Shown here in pieces: positions 2,742-9,081 of a stretch of 42,143 nucleotides of DNA. Source of the DNA: an uncultured Candidatus Saccharibacteria bacterium. GTDB taxonomy: Bacteria; Patescibacteriota; Minisyncoccia; Phycocordibacterales; WO2-35-19. Both the position numbers and the translations under genes were made by a program. The DNA lies in the NCBI GenBank assembly GCA_964519145.1, contig CAZFHL010000003.1, positions 1 through 42,143 of the forward strand, read 5' to 3'. Position 1 is the stretch's first letter. Each line of letters starts with the position of its first letter. The notes beneath the pieces are model-generated. The model saw nothing but the letters and a program-made list of their open reading frames with translations, was not told the origin of the DNA and did not search any database.

Positions 2742-3425
2742 TACGGGTACATATGTTGATTATGTTGATTAATTATAGAGCGTATAAAAGGTGAATATCC
2801 TTTTTGTTTTTGTAAACACGCTCTATAAGAAAGAGCGTTTTTTGTTTAAAAAATTCAATATCCTCATATTTTAAAAATCTAAACATTTTTAGAAGATGAG
2901 GGTAGAGAATACAGTTTTGTTTGAGAGAATGAATTTTGACAAATAACCCTAAAAGTCTGAAAAGATGATTAGGTATATGCCATTGCAACATCGCTTTTAG
3001 ATTAAAATCTAAGGGGTCTTTGTTTGTTGTAAATGGAAAAACTATATAGACTTTTTATTTGGTCTTATATAGCAGAGTAAAATAAAATAAAAATCAATTA
3101 TTTCTTCAAGATGATTGATTTAAAATATTTCTAAAACATTCAGAACAGAGTTGTTCTGGTGGATAGGAAGTTAAGAGCATATGGTGGATGCCTTGGCTAG
3201 AAAAAGCGATGAAGGACGTGAGCTGGCTACGATAAGCTTCGGGGAGGTGCCTAGCAACCTTTGATCCGGAGATGTCCGAATGGGGAAACCCAACTTGCTT
3301 GCAAGTTATCCTGAGCGTAAGCGAAGGATGCAAACCCTGGGAAGTAAAACATTTCAGTACCAGGAGGAAAAGAAACCAAAAAGTATTCCGTAAGTAGCGG
3401 CGAGCGAAAGCGGAGAAGCCCAGAG

Positions 3426-3560
3426 CGTGCGAAACACATAGTTTGTAAAGTTAAAAGTTCATAAAGTTCATAAAGTTTTTAAAGTAGAAAATAAAATTTT
3501 TACTTTATAACTTTTTACTTTATAACTTTATAGACTTTGTGATTTATGTGTTTCGCATGC
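3426..3560 (+). repeat. long AT-rich palindromic hairpin (ataaagt family) inserted in a domain I variable helix of 23S
   Basis: gcgtgcgaaacacata / tatgtgtttcgcatgc base stem encloses arms built of ..ataaagtt.. / ..aactttat.. repeats. The core aaagtttttaaagta-loop-tactttataac is shared with the hairpins at 8356-8452 and 8614-8709. Confidence 0.75.
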
Positions 3561-3767
3561 AGTTGTAAGACGACAACTTCGTATTTATACGAGGAAAGTT
3601 ACAAAATTATTTATTAGAAGAAACTTCTGGAAAGAAGTACCCTAGAGGGTAATAGTCCCGTAATTTAAAATAAATAATCTTTCTTGTTGTTGTTCTTGAG
3701 TACCTCGAGACACGAGTAGCTCGGGGGAATCTACCGGAACTAACCGGTAAGGCTAAATATTTTTCTA

Positions 3768-3809
<42 letters not shown>

Positions 3810-3870
3810 GCCCGGTGAGGGCGGTGAAATAGACCTGAAACTATATGCTTACAAGGAGTCAGAGCGGGTT

Positions 3871-4156
3871 GCATAATGTATAAAATTTTACTCTAAATAA
3901 TGGGGAGATGGAGTCACCCAATCATTCAGAATGGAAAACTAAAAGGAATCTTGGATTAAGACAAACAGCAGTCGCGCTCTGTTGGTTTTGACCAAGAAAG
4001 ACAGAAAGATTATTCTGGGTCATTTTTGGTTGGGTTAAGTTTCCAATACATGAGCTCATGTTTGGTAACAAAATCCTATCATTCCCAGGGGTAGGATTGT
4101 TCTGCAGAGCAATCCTACCCACCCATTATTTAGAGTAAAATTTTTATATATTATGC
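3871..4156 (+). other. intervening sequence (IVS) in 23S helix 25
   Basis: gcataatgtataaaattttactctaaataatgggg (3871-) and cccattatttagagtaaaatttttatatattatgc (-4156) form a ~35-bp stem. It replaces the tip of the helix between caaggagtcagagcgggtt and agtccgtcatggcgtgcc (E. coli ~540-550 region, a classic IVS site). The 210-nt core is itself hairpin-rich, e.g. gggtaggattg..caatcctaccc. Confidence 0.8.
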
Positions 4157-4817
4157 AGTCCGTCATGGCGTGCCTATTGAAGAATGAGCCAACGAGTTAA
4201 TTTATGCGGCTTGCCAAAGCAGTCGACCTGCAGAGGCTAAGTGAAAGCGAGCGTGAATAGCGCGCAATTTGTCGTATATATTAGACCCGAAGCCAGGTGA
4301 GCTTGCCATGGGCAGGGTGAAGTCATTCGAAAGAATGATGGAGGCCCGAACCGGTTGGTCGTGCGATTCCTTCGGATGACCTGTGGTAAGGAGTGAAAAG
4401 CTAATCGAACCTGGTAATAGCTGGTTCTCTCCGAAAGAGCTTTTGGGTTCGCGTCATGCGTTCCTTGCGGGGGTAGAGCACTGGAAGGTCTCGACAGGGA
4501 GAAATCTCGCGAGACCTATCAAACTCCGAATACTGCAAGTAAAAAGTATGACAGTTAGACGGCGGGGGCTAAGCTCCGTTCGTCAAAAGGGAAACAGCCC
4601 AGATCTCTATTTAAGGTCCCTAAATCATAGCTAAGTACACTTAAGGTGGTGACATTTCTCCGACAATGAGGAGGTTGGCTTAGAAGCAGCCATCCTTTAA
4701 AGAAAGCGTAACAGCTCACTCATTCAGAGATTTTGCGCCGAAGATAATCGGGGTTAAGCTATGTACCGAAACTGAGGGTTTGTAAACCTCATCAAAGATT
4801 TGTTCTTTTTGTTTTGT

Positions 4818-4905
4818 GGGGGGATGGCGGAATTGGTAGACGCAACGGACTTAAAATCCGTTGGATATTATATCCGTACGGGTTCGATTCCCGTTCCCCC
4901 TACCA
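4818..4905 (+). tRNA. tRNA-Leu (anticodon UAA), class II with long variable arm, CCA encoded
   Basis: Hand-folded cloverleaf:
- acceptor gggggga/tccccct (G1-U72 wobble)
- D arm gcg-gaattggtaga-cgc
- anticodon stem acgga/tccgt with loop cttaaaa
- variable arm ggata-tta-tatcc
- T arm acggg-ttcgatt-cccgt
- discriminator a, then cca. Confidence 0.85.
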
Positions 4906-4923
4906 CCACTTTTGGTAGAAAGT

Positions 4924-4999
4924 GGGCTTATAGCTCAATGGTTAGAGCAGTCGGCTCATAATCGATTGGTTCTCGGTTCAAGTCCGAGTAAGCCCACCA
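4924..4999 (+). tRNA. tRNA with CAU anticodon (elongator Met or lysidine-dependent Ile2, not initiator), CCA encoded
   Basis: Hand-folded cloverleaf:
- acceptor gggctta/taagccc with a paired 1-72
- D arm gctc-aatggtta-gagc
- anticodon stem gtcgg/tcgat with loop ctcataa
- T arm ctcgg-ttcaagt-ccgag
There is no GGG/CCC run in the anticodon stem, so it is not an initiator. Confidence 0.8.
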
Positions 5000-5040
5000 G
5001 TTTCTTCTAAAAGTTTGGTGAAGGTGTCGGTTTGGTATGT

Positions 5041-5116
5041 GGCCAGTTAGCTCAGATGGAAGAGCAGTGGCCCGATAAGCCACAGGTCGTAGGTTCGAGC
5101 CCTACACTGGCCACCA
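5041..5116 (+). tRNA. tRNA-Ile (anticodon GAU), CCA encoded, with C instead of U at position 33
   Basis: Hand-folded cloverleaf:
- acceptor ggccagt/actggcc
- D arm gctc-agatggaa-gagc
- anticodon stem gtggc/gccac with loop ccgataa
- T arm gtagg-ttcgagc-cctac. Confidence 0.8.
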
Positions 5117-5932
5117 AAATCCAAACAATTTTGACACAATTTTTTTCTGATTTTTTGAAAATCGGATCTTTGATGAGGTTTACAAGCGGTAGGAGAGTAT
5201 TCATAACCGCAGTGAAGCTGAAGGGGTGACCCACAGTGGAGCGTTATGAAGTAAGAATGTTGGCACAAGTAACCACAATGACGCTGAAAACGCGTCACGC
5301 CGAAAGACTAAGGTTTCCTTTCCGATGTCAATCAGGGAAGGGTTAGTCGGTCCTAAGGAGATGACGAAAGTCGCATCCGATGGATTCACGGTTAATATTC
5401 CGTGACCTATATATATTTCGATGGAGGGACGGAGTGTAGTATGCAAAGCACATTATTGGATTTGATGTCTGTGTTGTAAAAATGTTGTGTAGGAAAATCC
5501 GCATAACTTGTTTTAATACAAAATTTAAGCAATATAGCAATTTGGAACTTCGGTTCTGAAGAGTTTGCAAAGCGCGCTTCCAAGAAAAACTTCTAAGATT
5601 AAATATATGTAGACCGTACCGTAAACCGACACAGGTAGTCAGGTCGAGAAGACCAAGGCGAACGAGTGAGATGTCCCCAAGGAACTCGGCAAAAAAGCGG
5701 CCGTACCTTCGGTATAAGGCCTGCCCCACACAAGTGGGGCCGCAGCTAAAGAATCCCTGGCGACTGTTTATCAAAAACACAGCTCCCTGCGAACTCGTAA
5801 GAGGATGTATAGGGGGTGACACCTGACCAATGCCAGAAGGTCAAACAACGACGTTGTGAGAGTCGCAAGATTTTCATGGTGATTGTTGTAAGCCCTGGTG
5901 AATGTCGGCAATAACTATAATTGTCCTAAGGT

Positions 5933-6170
5933 TTTGAGAATTTCATTTAATGAAGTTTTCAAAAGGACTGGGACAGTTATAGAGATAAATAGTTAGACAA
6001 AATTTAAGAGTAAAGAGACAAAATAAAGTTAGTTACACAAAAAAGAAGCTACCTAAATTACAGTAATGTAGTTTTAGTCCAAACATGACAAACAAGCGCA
6101 CCAACGTCATGGTCCCGAATCCCGCTAAGCGGGAAGGGAAAAGATAGAGTCCAACTTGAAGGAATAGTTG
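5933..6170 (+). mobile_element. group I intron at 23S site equivalent to E. coli 1931 (ORF-less, 238 nt)
   Basis: The exon reads cctaaggT|...G|agcgaaattcc and rejoins to the universal CCUAAGGUAGCGAAAUUCC. The 5' exon ends in U and the intron ends in G. A J8/7-P7-like motif aagatagagtcc lies at 6141-6152. The P1 guide was not confidently located. Confidence 0.65.
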
Positions 6171-6292
6171 AGCGAAATTCCTTGTCTGGTAATTGAATTG
6201 CCAGTTTCGAGAGCGATCTCGATAAAAAATTCGGCTTATAACGGTGGAGCCCGACTCGAAAGAAGGGTAATACCGTGGGAAGTTGTTCAGTA

Positions 6293-6427
6293 CTAATTTT
6301 TGGAAAGAAGAAAACCCCTCAGGGTTCTCTGGGGGGGTTTAGGATCGCGATTTGCCCAATATGTAACAATCGCAGAGATTATTACAGCTAAAAAAGGTAG
6401 GATCAAAAAAAGCGATTCGTTGTTCAT
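6293..6427 (-). CDS. small hydrophobic peptide (44 aa) encoded antisense to the rRNA: MNNESLFLILPFLAVIISAIVTYWANRDPKPPQRTLRGFLLSKN
   Basis: ATG at 6427 is preceded by gagga plus 7 nt. The peptide has one predicted TM helix followed by a basic tail. It uses the same frame as track ORF 6293..6475, whose listed start is the TTG of the -35 box. An imperfect GC hairpin plus a T run overlaps the last codons. Confidence 0.5.
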   Translation of the reverse strand: MNNESLFLILPFLAVIISAIVTYWANRDPKPPQRTLRGFLLSKN

Positions 6428-6445
6428 GTAGGTATCCTCTGGAAG

Positions 6446-6475
6446 GATATAAACATAGCAGAGATTAATTGTCAA
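6446..6475 (-). promoter_or_regulatory. candidate promoter of peptide A
   Basis: Minus strand: TTGACA (6475-6470), 18-nt spacer, TATATC (6451-6446). The -10 element is only moderate. Confidence 0.4.
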
Positions 6476-6577
6476 TAATATTTTGACTCCAAAAATTAGT
6501 ACTGAATTAACCCCGTAACGACTTATGTACCACTAACTAGTGGCGCATAGATAGCTTAGGTAATACAATTATATTGT

Positions 6578-7063
6578 ATGAACAGCTATAACACGCCGAC
6601 TCTGCGAAGAGAGCTCGCAAACTACATCTCCGGATATGTTGATGGAGAAGGATGTTTCTCTGTTTCGGTATCGAAACGAGAGAAATTAAAAATCGGATGG
6701 GAAGTGAAGCCAAGTTTCTGTGTCGGTCAAAATTATGATCGGCGCGAAGTACTTGACCTCATGATTGTTTACTTCGGTTGCGGTCATATACGCCGCGATT
6801 GGGGAGACAGAACCCTGAAGTATGAAGTGAGAAAGATTAACGATCTCTTAGAGAAAGTCATTCCACACTTTGAAAAATTTCCTTTAAAGTCAGCAAAGCA
6901 AAAAGATTTCCTGCGGTTTGCAGAAATCTGCCGTCAGATGAAAGTTTTAGAGCACCACAAAGTGAGCGGTTTGAGAAAAATTCTCAAAAGCGCTTACAAG
7001 ATGAATGGATCAGGGAAGCGCAAGTTACCTTTATCCATGATTCTCAAAACAATTCGCAGATGA
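6578..7063 (+). CDS. LAGLIDADG homing endonuclease (single-motif, homodimer type)
   Basis: 161 aa with LANYISGYVDGEGCFSV (LAGLIDADG motif) near the N-terminus. It lies inside the group I intron, and its stop codon overlaps the intron core motif. Confidence 0.85.
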   Translation: MNSYNTPTLRRELANYISGYVDGEGCFSVSVSKREKLKIGWEVKPSFCVGQNYDRREVLDLMIVYFGCGHIRRDWGDRTLKYEVRKINDLLEKVIPHFEKFPLKSAKQKDFLRFAEICRQMKVLEHHKVSGLRKILKSAYKMNGSGKRKLPLSMILKTIRR

Positions 7064-7446
7064 AGATATAGTCTAATGCCTACAGTAATGTGGGGTAGGA
7101 GATTCTGCTCGCGCGGGCAGAATAGTCAAACTCAAATGAAGTTCAGACGCGCACGAATGGTGTAACGACTGGGGAACTGTCTCGGGGACTCGCTCGGTGA
7201 AAATACAGTACCGGTGAAGATGCCGGTTACCTGCAGTTAGACGAAAAGACCCCGGAAGCTTTACTGTAATTTGGCATTGAGGATATGTTTTTACTGCGTA
7301 GCATAGGTGGGAGGATTTGAAGTTTGCCTTTTGGGGCAGATGGATCCGTCAGTGAAATACCACTCTGTATTGACATATTTTCTAACCTGTTCGGCAAAAA
7401 CGGACAGAGACAGTGCCTGATGGGCAGTTTTAGTGGGGCGCTATCC

Positions 7447-7492
7447 TTCAGTATTTAAAATTTAAAAAGATTTAATTTTTTTGAATACTGAA
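7447..7492 (+). repeat. small cargo-less hairpin related to the cassette terminal repeats
   Basis: ttcagtatttaaaa.. pairs with ..ttttgaatactgaa. The arms resemble the outer repeats of cassette A (ttcagtact) and cassette B (attcaaa). It sits at the very 5' end of the L2262 intron. Confidence 0.5.
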
Positions 7493-7635
7493 TCCATGGC
7501 GCCTCCAGAGATTTGTCATCTCAAAACAAACAAATAAGGGGGACCATAGAGCGAAACCTCTATGAGAAAAGTTAGCTATATGCTGAGAAATCTCTTTGAG
7601 ATAATCAGCAGGGAAGTTAAATATTCAAATTTTTG

Positions 7636-7668
7636 GAAAAAGAAAATGCCAGCTCTTACGCGACTGGC
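7636..7668 (-). terminator. terminator-like hairpin after peptide B
   Basis: Minus strand: gccag-tcgcgtaagag-ctggc followed by attttcttttt. Confidence 0.45.
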
Positions 7669-7679
7669 TTACGGTCTTG

Positions 7680-7829
7680 TTAGATGAGTTGGAACTTTCG
7701 GAAAAAGCCAATGAGGCAAAGACCGAAAATCAAAGGAACGGTGATCACCACAAAAACCATCTGATCTTGGTGGTGTTGGGGATGGGTCAATGAATGCTGG
7801 TGACCCAACCCAACCAACGCTAACCACAT
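7680..7829 (-). CDS. small peptide (49 aa) encoded antisense to the rRNA: MWLALVGLGHQHSLTHPQHHQDQMVFVVITVPLIFGLCLIGFFRKFQLI
   Basis: AAGGAG, 6 nt, then ATG (7829); stop taa at 7682-7680. The peptide has a His/Gln-rich head, one hydrophobic helix and a basic tail. It is in a different frame from track ORF 7669..7878, which starts at the TTG of the -35 box. Confidence 0.55.
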   Translation of the reverse strand: MWLALVGLGHQHSLTHPQHHQDQMVFVVITVPLIFGLCLIGFFRKFQLI

Positions 7830-7849
7830 AAGGAACTCCTTTCGTGGTC

Positions 7850-7878
7850 ATTATGGCAAAACAATGACTTTTTGTCAA
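7850..7878 (-). promoter_or_regulatory. near-consensus promoter of peptide B
   Basis: Minus strand: TTGACA (7878-7873), exactly 17-nt spacer, CATAAT (7855-7850). Confidence 0.6.
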
Positions 7879-8355
7879 GCAAATCTTGACTCCAAAAATT
7901 TGAATATTTAATCCTTCAGAGACTAAACGCTAACCTTCTTGAAAAAGAAGATGATATAGTCCGAACTTTGTGGCGACACAAAGAGTAATAATTTATCCGT
8001 TAGTTATTGATTAACACAATGCCTAAAGAGTAACGGAGGAGCCTATTAAGGTCAGCTAGGCGTGAATGGAAACCATGCCGATAGTGTATAGGCACAAGCT
8101 GGCTTAACTGCAAGACGTAAGTGTCACGCAGATGCGAAAGCAGAGCTAAATGAACCGATCGTCCGCGTTAGACGCGGCGAAAGATTATCTGACAAAAGCT
8201 ACTCCGGGGATAACAGGCTGGTACTGCCTAAGCGTCCAGAGCGACGGCAGTGTTCGGCACCTCGATGTCGGCTCATCTTATCCCGGGGGTGGAGAAGCTC
8301 CCAAGGGTATGGCTGTTCGCCATTTAAAAAGATACGCGAGCTGGGTTCAGACCGT

Positions 8356-8452
8356 ACAGAAGTTATAAAGTTAAAAGTTTGTAAAGTTTTTAAAGTAAGG
8401 GAATTAATTTTTTACTTTATAAACTTTATAAACTTTATAAACTTTCAACTGT
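8356..8452 (+). repeat. AT-rich palindromic hairpin (ataaagt family) in the P1 loop of the L2593 intron
   Basis: acag (8356-8359) pairs with ctgt (8449-8452). The right arm contains tttataaac x3 in tandem. The core is taaagtttttaaagta-loop-tactttataaac. Confidence 0.7.
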
Positions 8453-8613
8453 TGTGCAATCTGAATCCCTTCGAGAAATTATAAATAATTTTGTTTTAGT
8501 TTTTTCGTTTTAAAATTATTAAAGATATCAAGACTTTAATAATAAATGTTAGTAGATACCCGCCTTAGCTAAAAAAGCTATGGCGGGCGATGCAATCAAA
8601 TCACGGCGGTCCG

Positions 8614-8709
8614 ATGATTTATAAAGTAGAAAGTCCGTAAAGTTTTTAAAGTAAGTGCAAAATGTATTTACTTTATAAACATTATAACTTTAAAAACTTT
8701 ATGAATCAT
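8614..8709 (+). repeat. AT-rich palindromic hairpin (ataaagt family), P2 position of the L2593 intron
   Basis: atgatttataaagt pairs with actttatgaatcat. The core is gtaaagtttttaaagta-loop-tactttataaac. Confidence 0.7.
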
Positions 8710-9081
8710 TGGAATAAGTTGACTTATATCGGTGAAGTCCAATTTGGATAACACCGAGGGAACCGCGTCTGACGCGGACCCGTAGAGACTAAACGTCAAC
8801 AATTTGTTTTCTTTTGTAAGAGGTGAGGGGAGAATAAGCAATCAGTCAACCCAAACGACGAAGTATGTCGGACTGTATTTGCAGTTTCCATTTTGCAAAA
8901 AATGGATTCCATGCGTGCCACGGTACCCTCCCTCCTCTCTTACAGAGGAAAACAGATTAAGCTATAGTCCATTGCCACAAGTAATTGTGGGGTTCCGCCT
9001 TCGCTAAAAGCTATGGCGGACAAATCAAGCGTGAGACAGGTTGGTCTCCTATCTACTGCAGGCGTTGATTCTTGAGGGGAT

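Follow-up and report, generated by a model that had tools for sequence, protein, structure and literature searches.

What does a small gene with signals of its own, bounded by a perfect inverted repeat and read against the ribosomal RNA (rRNA), do inside an intron of a 23S rRNA gene? The question is raised by a 42,143-nucleotide (nt) contig of an uncultured Candidatus Saccharibacteria bacterium (GenBank assembly GCA_964519145.1, contig CAZFHL010000003.1, positions 1 to 42,143; hereafter the window), in which Rfam recognises a heavily interrupted 23S rRNA gene and a 5S gene, and in which two such inserts, cassettes A and B, lie within the L1951 and L2262 insertions of the 23S gene. The best explanation, and one that we consider likely from comparison of related sequences, is that these are self-contained small-gene expression units located at RNA helix tips in those parts of the rRNA operons of the Candidate Phyla Radiation (CPR) that do not enter mature rRNA, and that A and B represent a widespread family of such units.

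Cassette A is delimited by the inverted repeat TTCAGTACTAATTTTTGGA / TCCAAAAATTAGTACTGAA, a perfect 19 bp with 183 nt between the arms; within positions 5000-9000 only cassette B has a longer one (21 bp), and chance does not account for a perfect 19-bp repeat within 250 nt in a sequence of 42 kb. The original prediction, made from the letters of the window, had described this repeat, a minus-strand -35 hexamer followed after 18 nt by a -10, a Shine-Dalgarno (SD) sequence placed before the ATG, a 44-codon open reading frame (ORF) for one transmembrane-like helix with a Pro/Arg/Lys-rich tail, and an imperfect GC hairpin and T run over the last codons; each of these is present (Table 1). The ORF translates as MNNESLFLILPFLAVIISAIVTYWANRDPKPPQRTLRGFLLSKN, ends with a TAG at 6295-6293 within the arm, and has a best 19-residue Kyte-Doolittle mean of 2.40 ahead of the Pro/Arg/Lys-rich tail. 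The host was likewise named correctly as an L1951 intron containing a LAGLIDADG ORF, as seen from the mapping of the insertion onto Escherichia coli numbering and from the PF00961 match. A fold of the 5' region of cassette A in which the SD is sequestered was set aside, the 5' half of its stem lying upstream of the likely transcription start.

Table 1. Features of cassettes A and B and of the interrupted 23S rRNA gene. Positions are those of the window; insertion sites were mapped onto E. coli 23S numbering.
Feature	Position	Strand	Remarks
Cassette A, full unit	6286..6506	(-)	221 bp; arm, promoter, SD, 44-codon ORF, terminator, arm; layout as in 51 other unique cassettes
A, arm, rRNA-sense 5' helix strand	6286..6304		perfect 19-bp complement of 6488-6506; on the cassette strand 3' of the terminator; contains the ORF stop
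A, arm, rRNA-sense 3' helix strand	6488..6506		on the cassette strand 5' of the promoter; carries the A/T tract AATTTTT
A, small palindrome GTCAA-N7-TTGAC	6471..6487	(-)	second half is part of the -35 hexamer
A, -35 hexamer TTGACA	6470..6475	(-)	
A, candidate -10 TATATC	6446..6451	(-)	18-nt spacer; substandard (family consensus TAnnnT at 17 nt)
A, SD GAGGA	6435..6439	(-)	7 nt 5' of the ATG at 6427
A, ORF	6293..6427	(-)	44 codons + stop; single hydrophobic helix, basic tail
A, intrinsic-terminator-like signal	6305..6337	(-)	bulged GC hairpin 6337-6315, then T-run TTTTCTTCTT 6314-6305; overlaps final ORF codons
Host insertion L1951, probable group I intron	6193..7138	(+)	after E. coli 1951-1953; holds cassette A and LAGLIDADG ORF
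LAGLIDADG homing-endonuclease ORF (L1951 intron)	6578..7063	(+) sense	161 aa; PF00961 LAGLIDADG_1
Cassette B	7617..7911	(-)	295 bp; P6 loop of L2262 group I intron; arms 7617-7637 / 7891-7911, 21 bp
B, -35	7878-7873	(-)	
B, -10 CATAAT	7855-7850	(-)	
B, SD AAGGAG	7841-7836	(-)	
B, ORF	7829-7680	(-)	49 codons
B, hairpin	7668-7648	(-)	followed by T-run
Insertion with cassette B	7448-8021		E. coli 2262/2263
Insertion	3866-4281		~416 nt; in place of E. coli 541-666 (helix 25 region)
Insertion with three tRNA genes	4778-5247		replaces E. coli 1164-1244 (helix 45 region)
Insertion	5933-6170		238 nt; after E. coli 1931
Insertion	8356-9029		E. coli 2593/2594

Cassette B looks fully functional by its signals: its promoter (TTGACA-17-CATAAT with an upstream TG, 11/12) is the top match of the sigma-70 scan, and its peptide has a 19-residue Kyte-Doolittle mean of 2.75. 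The two cassettes had been said to share termini beyond the palindrome core, and they do. The 15-mer TTGACTCCAAAAATT is present at exactly two places in the window, one per cassette; over the promoter-side 44 nt that surround it A and B have 75% identity, and the opposite sides share AATTTTTGGAAA. On the rRNA-sense strand the palindrome together with the arm also yields a promoter-like TTGTCA-16-AAAAAT (9/12; 6469-6496 and 7872-7899, both (+)), which points outward and, in cassette A, towards the LAGLIDADG ORF 80 nt downstream. We rejected it as the promoter of the LAGLIDADG gene, since the two bases completing TTGTCA are only about 50% conserved in the family and the intron of B has no downstream ORF; the site is probably fortuitous.

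Relatives were collected by scanning one genome per prokaryotic species with the motif common to A and B, TTTTTGGAGTCAA-N6-9-TTGACA, a pattern that fixes the GTCAA/palindrome and the -35 and that promoter-less relatives would escape. Of 47 loci returned, 24, all in metagenome-assembled genomes (MAGs) of CPR/Patescibacteria, hold 25 cassettes of 178-406 bp with perfect arms of 16-22 bp; two more cassettes end with the locus, and the rest are scattered chance matches without arms. A scan of metagenome contigs gave at least 34 cassettes, and one of viral contigs gave three matches, unrelated to the cassettes. With duplicates removed, the analysed set comprises 52 unique cassettes including A and B (178-527 bp), the metagenome share being drawn from the matches listed. 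Its members are phylogenetically non-independent, yet they are spread over at least ten sites and several CPR classes. The motif is also part of an unrelated, highly repeated element (..GGGGGAGAGCCCCCCGAATTTTTGGAGTCAATTTATAAAATTGACAC(A/C)GGTTCCGATCATGTGGC..), which is found in about 75 short contigs of samples Ga0209781 and Ga0209364 (L049-L167); in L101 (1-1099) it has a 27-nt inverted repeat with copies about 1.1 kb apart. The AATTTTTGGAGTCAA..TTGAC end that it has in common with the cassettes may or may not be a coincidence.

All 52 cassettes have the same architecture, as expected if A and B are members of one family, as had been proposed. On the cassette strand an arm ending ..(T)TCAGCACTAATTTTTGGA is followed by GTCAAG, 4-7 variable nt, CTTGACA (with 6-9 nt from GTCAA to TTGACA), the -10, a leader of about 25-40 nt with a GGAGG-type SD, the ORF, a GC-rich hairpin, a T-run and the second arm (consensus TCCAAAAATTAGTGCTGA(A)..); the ATG is 73-104 nt from the cassette end. 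The -10, the SD, the start position, the ORF and the terminator all lie outside the search pattern, so their recurrence is not imposed by it. The -10 and the ribosome-binding site, whose lack of conservation would have counted against the original prediction, are both retained: the -10 is at 17-nt spacing in 38/52 cassettes, with T1 in 48, A2 in 50 and T6 in 48, and 46/52 have an SD-like motif upstream of the start, the others having a weak SD, none, or a leaderless start. An ORF is kept at the same position in all 52. The median length of the longest ATG-ORF is 54.5 codons on the cassette strand versus 30 on the opposite strand and 23 in shuffles, and this ORF exceeds 95% of the cassette's own shuffles in 31/52; pooled ORFs also differ in composition between codon positions (G 0.295, 0.165 and 0.194 at positions 1, 2 and 3). 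Every cassette has a terminator-like hairpin and T-run, with a median hairpin dG of -14.4 kcal/mol and 6-9 T among the last 10 nt before the arm. A strand bias of these hairpins, assessed from G.U pairs and dG on both strands, is not significant (28 vs 23, p = 0.16).

Further divergent copies were found by a profile search of the collected loci and by inspection by eye, and include variants with a 10-nt palindrome spacer, TTGACG, a lost palindrome, an indel in the arm, two ORFs, or an empty chassis. In L050 a copy without the GTCAAG palindrome half keeps promoter and SD and encodes a 27-aa membrane peptide; it is the second cassette (at about +722) of a 964-bp stretch, the sole 'cassette' longer than 600 bp, which had been a candidate for an autonomous long version and was rejected as two neighbouring cassettes. 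The 527-bp cassette of L100 has two overlapping ORFs for small membrane proteins. In the 178-bp cassette of L030, a 33-codon ORF starts 5 nt past the -10 and is either leaderless or possibly non-coding.

The arms themselves provide information about their role. Their inner 9-10 bp (AATTTTTGGA / TCCAAAAATT) are nearly invariant, whereas the outer 6-12 bp vary by site and lineage with complementarity kept. Among 30 distinct arm pairs, 12 of 22 positions have changed on both sides (105 cells), with 93% of cells paired, and the covariation score of 0.445 compares with 0.153 in shuffles (0/500 reaching the observed value) and with no more than 0.106 once the pairing is shifted out of register. Read on the rRNA-sense strand, the few pairs that are not Watson-Crick are mainly G.U (3/3 in the arms from the gapless search), and the helix mostly continues into the flanks past an internal loop. 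The GTCAAG/CTTGAC palindrome behaves similarly, its sixth pair covarying (G-C in 34, T-A in 8 and A-T in 2 of 52) and 5/6 single-transition mismatches being G.U on the rRNA-sense strand. Because the left arm is upstream of the cassette's own transcription start, the arms can pair in the sense RNA only. They are best read as a structural RNA helix in the rRNA-sense transcript that would extend intron helix P6, and not as transposase-binding ends.

The intron contexts of A and B agree with this assignment. The P6 base flanking cassette A is GGGAAGTTG (6277-6285) / TTAACCCC (6507-6514), and the order of its context (P4' ACCGT, GGGAAGTTG, arms, TTAACCCC, GTAACGACT) is the same as that of B (P4'-GGGAAG), whose arms form the P6/P6a stem of its group I intron in the Rfam alignment. 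The Rfam group I match within the L1951 insertion is partial (6911-7095, 36.8 bits) and under the family threshold. Cassette-free group I introns (L2593 in the window, and other loci) have a GGGAA(G/C).. / ..(G)ACCC base with a simple hairpin of 4-10 bp on top, and empty P6 hairpins keep a GGGAAGTC / TGACCC base identical to that of cassette-bearing ones. Since cassette-free introns share the P6 base with a simple hairpin, the cassette evidently replaces the terminal P6 hairpin and its arms extend P6.

It might be argued from this that the inverted repeat is a mere peripheral extension of P6 and the minus-strand 'gene' a chance reading, given that the arms belong to P6 and that the sense-strand interior of cassette A folds better than its shuffles (z = -3.3). 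The same -10, SD, ATG position, ORF and terminator nevertheless recur in 52 cassettes with unrelated interiors, interiors on average fold better on the cassette strand (36/52), and the unit is not confined to introns, being present also in 23S helix 9 and in the leader and trailer of the 16S gene. A chance reading is already contradicted by these family data, and we regard it as extremely improbable.

A second possibility is a non-autonomous DNA transposon, either a miniature inverted-repeat transposable element (MITE) or a mobile insertion cassette, with ends bound by a transposase acting in trans. The terminal inverted repeats (perfect, 16-22 bp), the small size, the two or three copies per operon and the identical ends at different sites of one rRNA gene (L002, L128) are all of the kind that such an element would show, and variable cargo has a parallel in MIC231, a mobile insertion cassette with variable passenger content. 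About 50 flanks show no target-site duplication, however, and instead continue the helix with internal loops; the outer arm varies by compensatory change while its inner 10-14 nt are constant, the opposite of transposase-bound ends; no long transposase-bearing version is present among 170 loci; copies are found in rRNA operons only and in one orientation only; and the interiors, unlike those expected of a MITE, are unrelated in all but two small groups. We know of no cognate transposase, and judge a transposon to be quite improbable. The comparison with the Correia elements of Neisseria, MITEs with promoter activity whose inverted repeats form hairpins cleaved by RNase III, divides in the same way: the cassettes resemble these and MIC231 in being short, inverted-repeat-bounded and equipped with an internal promoter, with a MIC-like variable passenger between constant ends, and differ in the lack of target duplication, the compensatory arm evolution, the unrelated interiors and the constrained orientation and location. 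As for the term 'mobile' in the original prediction, distribution and presence or absence would fit mobility, but the signature of transposition (i.e. target duplication) was not seen.

Where the cassettes are found, and which way they face, was determined with Rfam and by mapping to E. coli 16S and 23S; six other unique loci are short or end before the rRNA. Every cassette with rRNA in its locus is inside or adjoining an rRNA gene, and each of the 46 unique cassettes that can be oriented runs antisense to the rRNA. The host sites number at least ten, including group I intron P6 loops at five 23S positions and one 16S position. The 23S sites are L1951/52 (cassette A and five others), L2262/63 (cassette B and others), L2500/01, L2593/94, L2657, and the helix 9 region, where the cassette of L010 replaces E. 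coli 131-177 with no intron; those of the 16S gene are 789-794, 857, the 68-243 region, the leader and the 3' trailer. Several operons hold two or three copies. In L043 a match to a group II intron domain (RF01998, 2999-3085, at threshold) is located about 280 nt from the cassette at the 16S 3' end, and CPR 16S trailers may combine several kinds of insertion.

The antisense orientation of A and B had been taken to argue that the arrangement is functional. The observation extends to the family, in which 46/46 orientable unique cassettes are antisense and 52/52 keep an ORF, but uniform orientation does not by itself prove a regulatory function, as the polarity of the terminator would explain the orientation too. 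With a copy in sense orientation the rRNA operon would acquire an internal intrinsic terminator, so antisense copies alone might be expected to persist, and an antisense copy would be harmless because on the sense strand the U-run precedes, rather than follows, the hairpin.

The cargo, in contrast to the chassis, is exchanged. L013, L014 and L021, from three species representatives, have cassettes at one shared 16S intron site with identical 22-bp arms. Between L014 and L021 the 500-nt flanks are 91% and 96% identical and the chassis 90%, whereas the interiors are 26% identical (28% when shuffled); neutral divergence is low, since one flank (5') is entirely intron. In the three-way alignment identity reaches up to TTGACA and resumes at the T-run with sharp breakpoints. 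Similarly, L133 and cassette A, both in the L1951 intron, have 5' flanks that are 85% identical and interiors that are 27% identical, and four further cassette pairs show the same pattern of like flanks and unrelated interiors. With orthologous sites, near-identical flanks and unrelated cargo, we conclude that cargo has been exchanged, as the proposal of interchangeable genes required, and from the sharp boundaries of identity that the unit of exchange runs from just after the -35 through the terminator hairpin.

What is exchanged is diverse. The 50 confidently delimited cargo peptides, on which all peptide counts are based, are 30-111 aa long (median 60). A membrane-like segment (19-residue Kyte-Doolittle mean of at least 1.6) is present in 29 (58%), and the remaining 21 are soluble, Cys-rich or lipoprotein-like; the description of the cargo as membrane peptides therefore applies to these 29, A and B included, and not to the other 21. 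The cargos are nearly all mutually unrelated, with the exception of two small groups. In one of these (L075, L127 and L143) the reading frame is kept across an indel near the start, and the ratio of nonsynonymous to synonymous substitution rates (dN/dS) for L075-L143 is 0.23, with no synonymous excess in shifted-frame controls; in the other, the cargos of L025 and L124 have 52% amino-acid identity over 40 residues.

The hydrophobic cargos recall type I toxin-antitoxin systems (e.g. Fst, Hok/Sok and TisB/IstR), whose toxins are hydrophobic peptides of less than about 60 aa, and a related function is conceivable for the cassettes, in which the hydrophobic peptide would act as a toxin on the membrane, and head-on transcription together with the complementary pre-rRNA or intron RNA would serve as the antitoxin. 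Synthesis of the peptide would then be restricted to times of collapsing rRNA synthesis, e.g. upon starvation, dormancy or phage-induced host shut-off, a proposal that refines the function of a small-gene expression unit. A, B and 29/50 cargos are transmembrane-like, often with a charged tail, many are of 30-76 aa, within the range of the small type I toxins Fst, TisB, Hok and BsrG, and their hypervariable orphan (ORFan) sequences are typical of such toxins; in addition, all 46 orientable copies converge with the strongest transcription unit of the cell. The likeness, i.e. small hydrophobic ORFan-like peptides opposite a complementary transcript, is limited by the 21/50 cargos (about 40%) that are not hydrophobic, by a location confined to rRNA operons, and by the lack of a dedicated antitoxin small RNA gene, the pre-rRNA alone being the complementary RNA. 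No antitoxin promoter is conserved, TTGTCA-16-AAAAAT resting on two bases that are about 50% conserved, and no toxin family of PADLOC or NCBIfam is matched. A type I-toxin-like or dormancy role would fit the hydrophobic majority of the peptides and not the rest, and we consider this proposal possible but rather unlikely.

Alternatively, the functional product could be an antisense RNA, a cis-regulator of splicing, rRNA processing or transcription that acts through duplex formation, RNase III cleavage or polymerase collision, with the ORF merely keeping the RNA translated and stable. Promoter and terminator are indeed the most conserved parts, the ORF sequence is free, and the location is exclusively in rRNA operons. 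But the SD, the start position and the length of the ORF are maintained, related cargos are conserved at the amino-acid level, and the terminator confines the transcript to looped-out sequence, outside the functional intron core and the rRNA. We hold a purely RNA-based function to be improbable.

Several observations weigh against the interpretation of the cassettes as small-gene expression units. The conservation of the -35 and of the palindrome is circular, because the pattern used in the search prescribed TTTTTGGAGTCAA..TTGACA. Terminator polarity can trivially account for the uniform orientation, which is no proof of regulation or of coupling to rRNA transcription. Since the second codon position is T-rich, 'membrane-like' peptides can easily arise by chance. 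Purifying selection is documented for two small cargo groups only, and within one of these dN/dS is about 0.9 for L075-L127. No credible homologue of peptide A was found in a word-index search or by exhaustive HMMER comparison with 1.8 billion representatives, in which the two matches were to proteins of more than 1600 aa and had no aligned stretch; the soluble cargos of L124 (57 aa) and L140 (104 aa) match only themselves among 5.8 billion proteins; and neither A and B nor 16 other cargos gave anything above noise with Pfam, NCBIfam or PADLOC. In L132 (9679-9745) the chassis is empty: some 65 nt comprise arms, GTCAAG and hairpin/T-run but neither promoter nor ORF. Finally, the -10 of cassette A was described too favourably as moderate: TATATC is present, but it lacks one or the other of A2 and T6 whichever spacer is taken and is missed by a simple sigma-70 scan. 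Cassette A is also the second-shortest of the family, and its ORF, which encodes an orphan peptide, reads through the terminator into the arm. Together with the weak -10, this may mean that A is a copy in decay or expressed only weakly.

The mode of action that we propose for the family as small-gene expression units is as follows. The cassettes occupy P6 loops of group I introns, insertions resembling intervening sequences, and the leader and trailer of the 16S gene, with a constant chassis (arm, A/T tract, GTCAAG..CTTGACA palindrome, -10, SD, hairpin, T-run and arm) around a cargo of one small ORF, or rarely two. In the rRNA-sense transcript, as covariation and the empty P6 hairpins show, the arms pair and extend the host helix so that the insert is looped out, and intron folding and rRNA processing would therefore be undisturbed. 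A short mRNA for a protein of 30-111 aa would be made from the opposite strand, starting at a sigma-70-type promoter, translated by means of the SD and ending at an intrinsic terminator; transcription and translation of the unit are suggested by the conserved signals, the ORF statistics and the codon-level conservation in the few related cargos. Because this mRNA would be head-on with, and fully complementary to, the pre-rRNA or intron RNA, cargo expression might be inverse to rRNA synthesis. The observed replacement of cargo could proceed by recombination in the conserved ends (about 40 nt and 30 nt), and the cassettes may spread with introns and by way of the universally conserved rRNA flanks. 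The cargo behaves, in this analysis, like a passenger ('moron-like') gene of rRNA insertions.

Morons are autonomous promoter-gene-terminator passengers of prophages, and the cassettes resemble them as self-contained transcription units in a selfish or mobile host element with diverse cargo, often small membrane proteins; they differ in being carried by an rRNA intron, intervening sequence or spacer instead of a prophage, and in that the flanks are uniform, conserved and helix-forming and the orientation strictly antisense. Integron gene cassettes, in comparison, are promoterless ORFs with an attC site next to an integrase/attI platform, whereas each unit here has its own promoter and terminator, and there are neither arrays nor an integrase in the loci examined. 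A gene in the P6a loop of a group I intron is known from phage T4 td, which carries the homing-endonuclease gene of I-TevI. Like such intron-loop endonuclease genes, a cassette is an optional gene in the terminal loop (P6) of an rRNA group I intron, with a loop-closing helix that keeps the ribozyme fold intact. In contrast to them, its cargo is a hypervariable ORFan of 30-111 aa with no domain of a homing-endonuclease family such as LAGLIDADG, GIY-YIG, HNH, His-Cys or PD-(D/E)xK (Pfam and NCBIfam; A, B and 16 others), it has its own conserved chassis of promoter, terminator and arms and swaps cargo between orthologous sites, and it also occurs outside introns (leader, trailer and helix 9), the LAGLIDADG ORF of the window being separate and in sense orientation. 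The antisense orientation has a precedent in nuclear rDNA introns of eukaryotes, which are reported to carry His-Cys box endonuclease genes in both sense and antisense orientation (PMC9548176).

A structural parallel among rRNA insertions is the intervening sequence (IVS). IVSs are extended stem-loops in bacterial 23S and 16S rRNA that are excised by RNase III; their sites include helices 9, 25 and 45, and some have ORFs, such as S23p. The cassettes share with them a long perfect stem at the tip of an rRNA helix, most directly in L010, which is in the helix 9 region with no intron, and other copies are in the 16S 68-243 region and in spacers. Classical IVSs lack, however, an antisense unit of promoter, SD, ORF and terminator, and most cassettes, A included, are within introns and not directly in mature rRNA helices. 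IVSs have been named as a possible class of the uncharacterised CPR insertions (PMC11270868).

The interrupted 23S gene of the window has further peculiarities. The insertion in the helix 45 region contains genes for tRNA-Leu (TAA), tRNA-Met (CAT) and tRNA-Ile (GAT) at 4818-4905, 4924-4999 and 5041-5116, all in sense orientation within the 23S gene; domains I-II of the 23S rRNA are 5' of it (3172-4777) and the remainder is 3'. This implies that the 23S rRNA would be fragmented through tRNA processing, and the relative L010 has tRNA-like genes at the equivalent position (1733-2123). A micro-exon of 22 nt (6171-6192; E. coli 1932-1953, 95% identical), misplaced by the Rfam alignment, separates the L1931 and L1951 insertions. 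In the L2593 insertion about 290 nt precede the Rfam group I match (8647-8991) and include a 78-nt direct repeat (8363-8440 / 8619-8696, 79% identical) built of short repeats of the TTATAAAG/ACTTTATAA type, together with several inverted repeats of 15-17 bp; this is a different, cassette-free sort of extra sequence. The host genome has 29% GC, and its 23S exons are 92% identical to those of two MAGs labelled Saccharibacteria, which supports its placement in the CPR. The GC content at third codon positions is 0.40-0.58 for ORFs A and B and the LAGLIDADG ORF, versus about 0.17 for ordinary host genes (eight long ones in the window beyond 10 kb). The intron-borne cargo is in this respect compositionally foreign to the host, which would fit horizontally moving intron cargo or constraints from RNA structure. 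An exact-protein look-up of the LAGLIDADG gene for strain variants of cassette A gave one contig of 686 bp, identical to the window.

No description of the cassette family, nor its literal motif, was found in open-access literature text, and by its architecture we rate the cassette as a new kind of element made of conventional parts. CPR bacteria have unusually many rRNA insertions, so far explained by homing endonucleases, and the largest survey of these left many uncharacterised and is silent on antisense genes, promoters and inverted repeats (PMC11270868). Our findings indicate that some of these insertions are, or contain, a modular system of small genes whose cargo can be exchanged. Such cassettes also explain spurious 'hypothetical proteins' called within CPR rRNA genes and can be annotated by the signature …GCACTAATTTTTGGAGTCAAG-N6-CTTGACA…. 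A more far-reaching idea, which we put forward as speculative and doubtful, is that the cassettes constitute a horizontally exchangeable small-protein platform that senses the growth state through the rRNA operon, silenced by head-on transcription or pairing and firing when rRNA synthesis stops. It would deliver fast-evolving membrane-active or effector peptides with roles as toxins or in dormancy, anti-phage defence or host interaction, and would act as a cradle of new genes, its frame of promoter, SD and terminator letting small genes arise and swap between CPR lineages by way of the conserved rRNA flanks. If the cassettes are expressed, they would represent a hidden set of small proteins in genomes with very few genes, the first bacterial case of protein genes placed systematically antisense within rRNA operons, and a naturally occurring example of genes whose expression is inversely coupled to rRNA transcription. 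The sharp swap boundaries and the ORFan cargo make them a tractable system for studying the turnover or birth of small genes.

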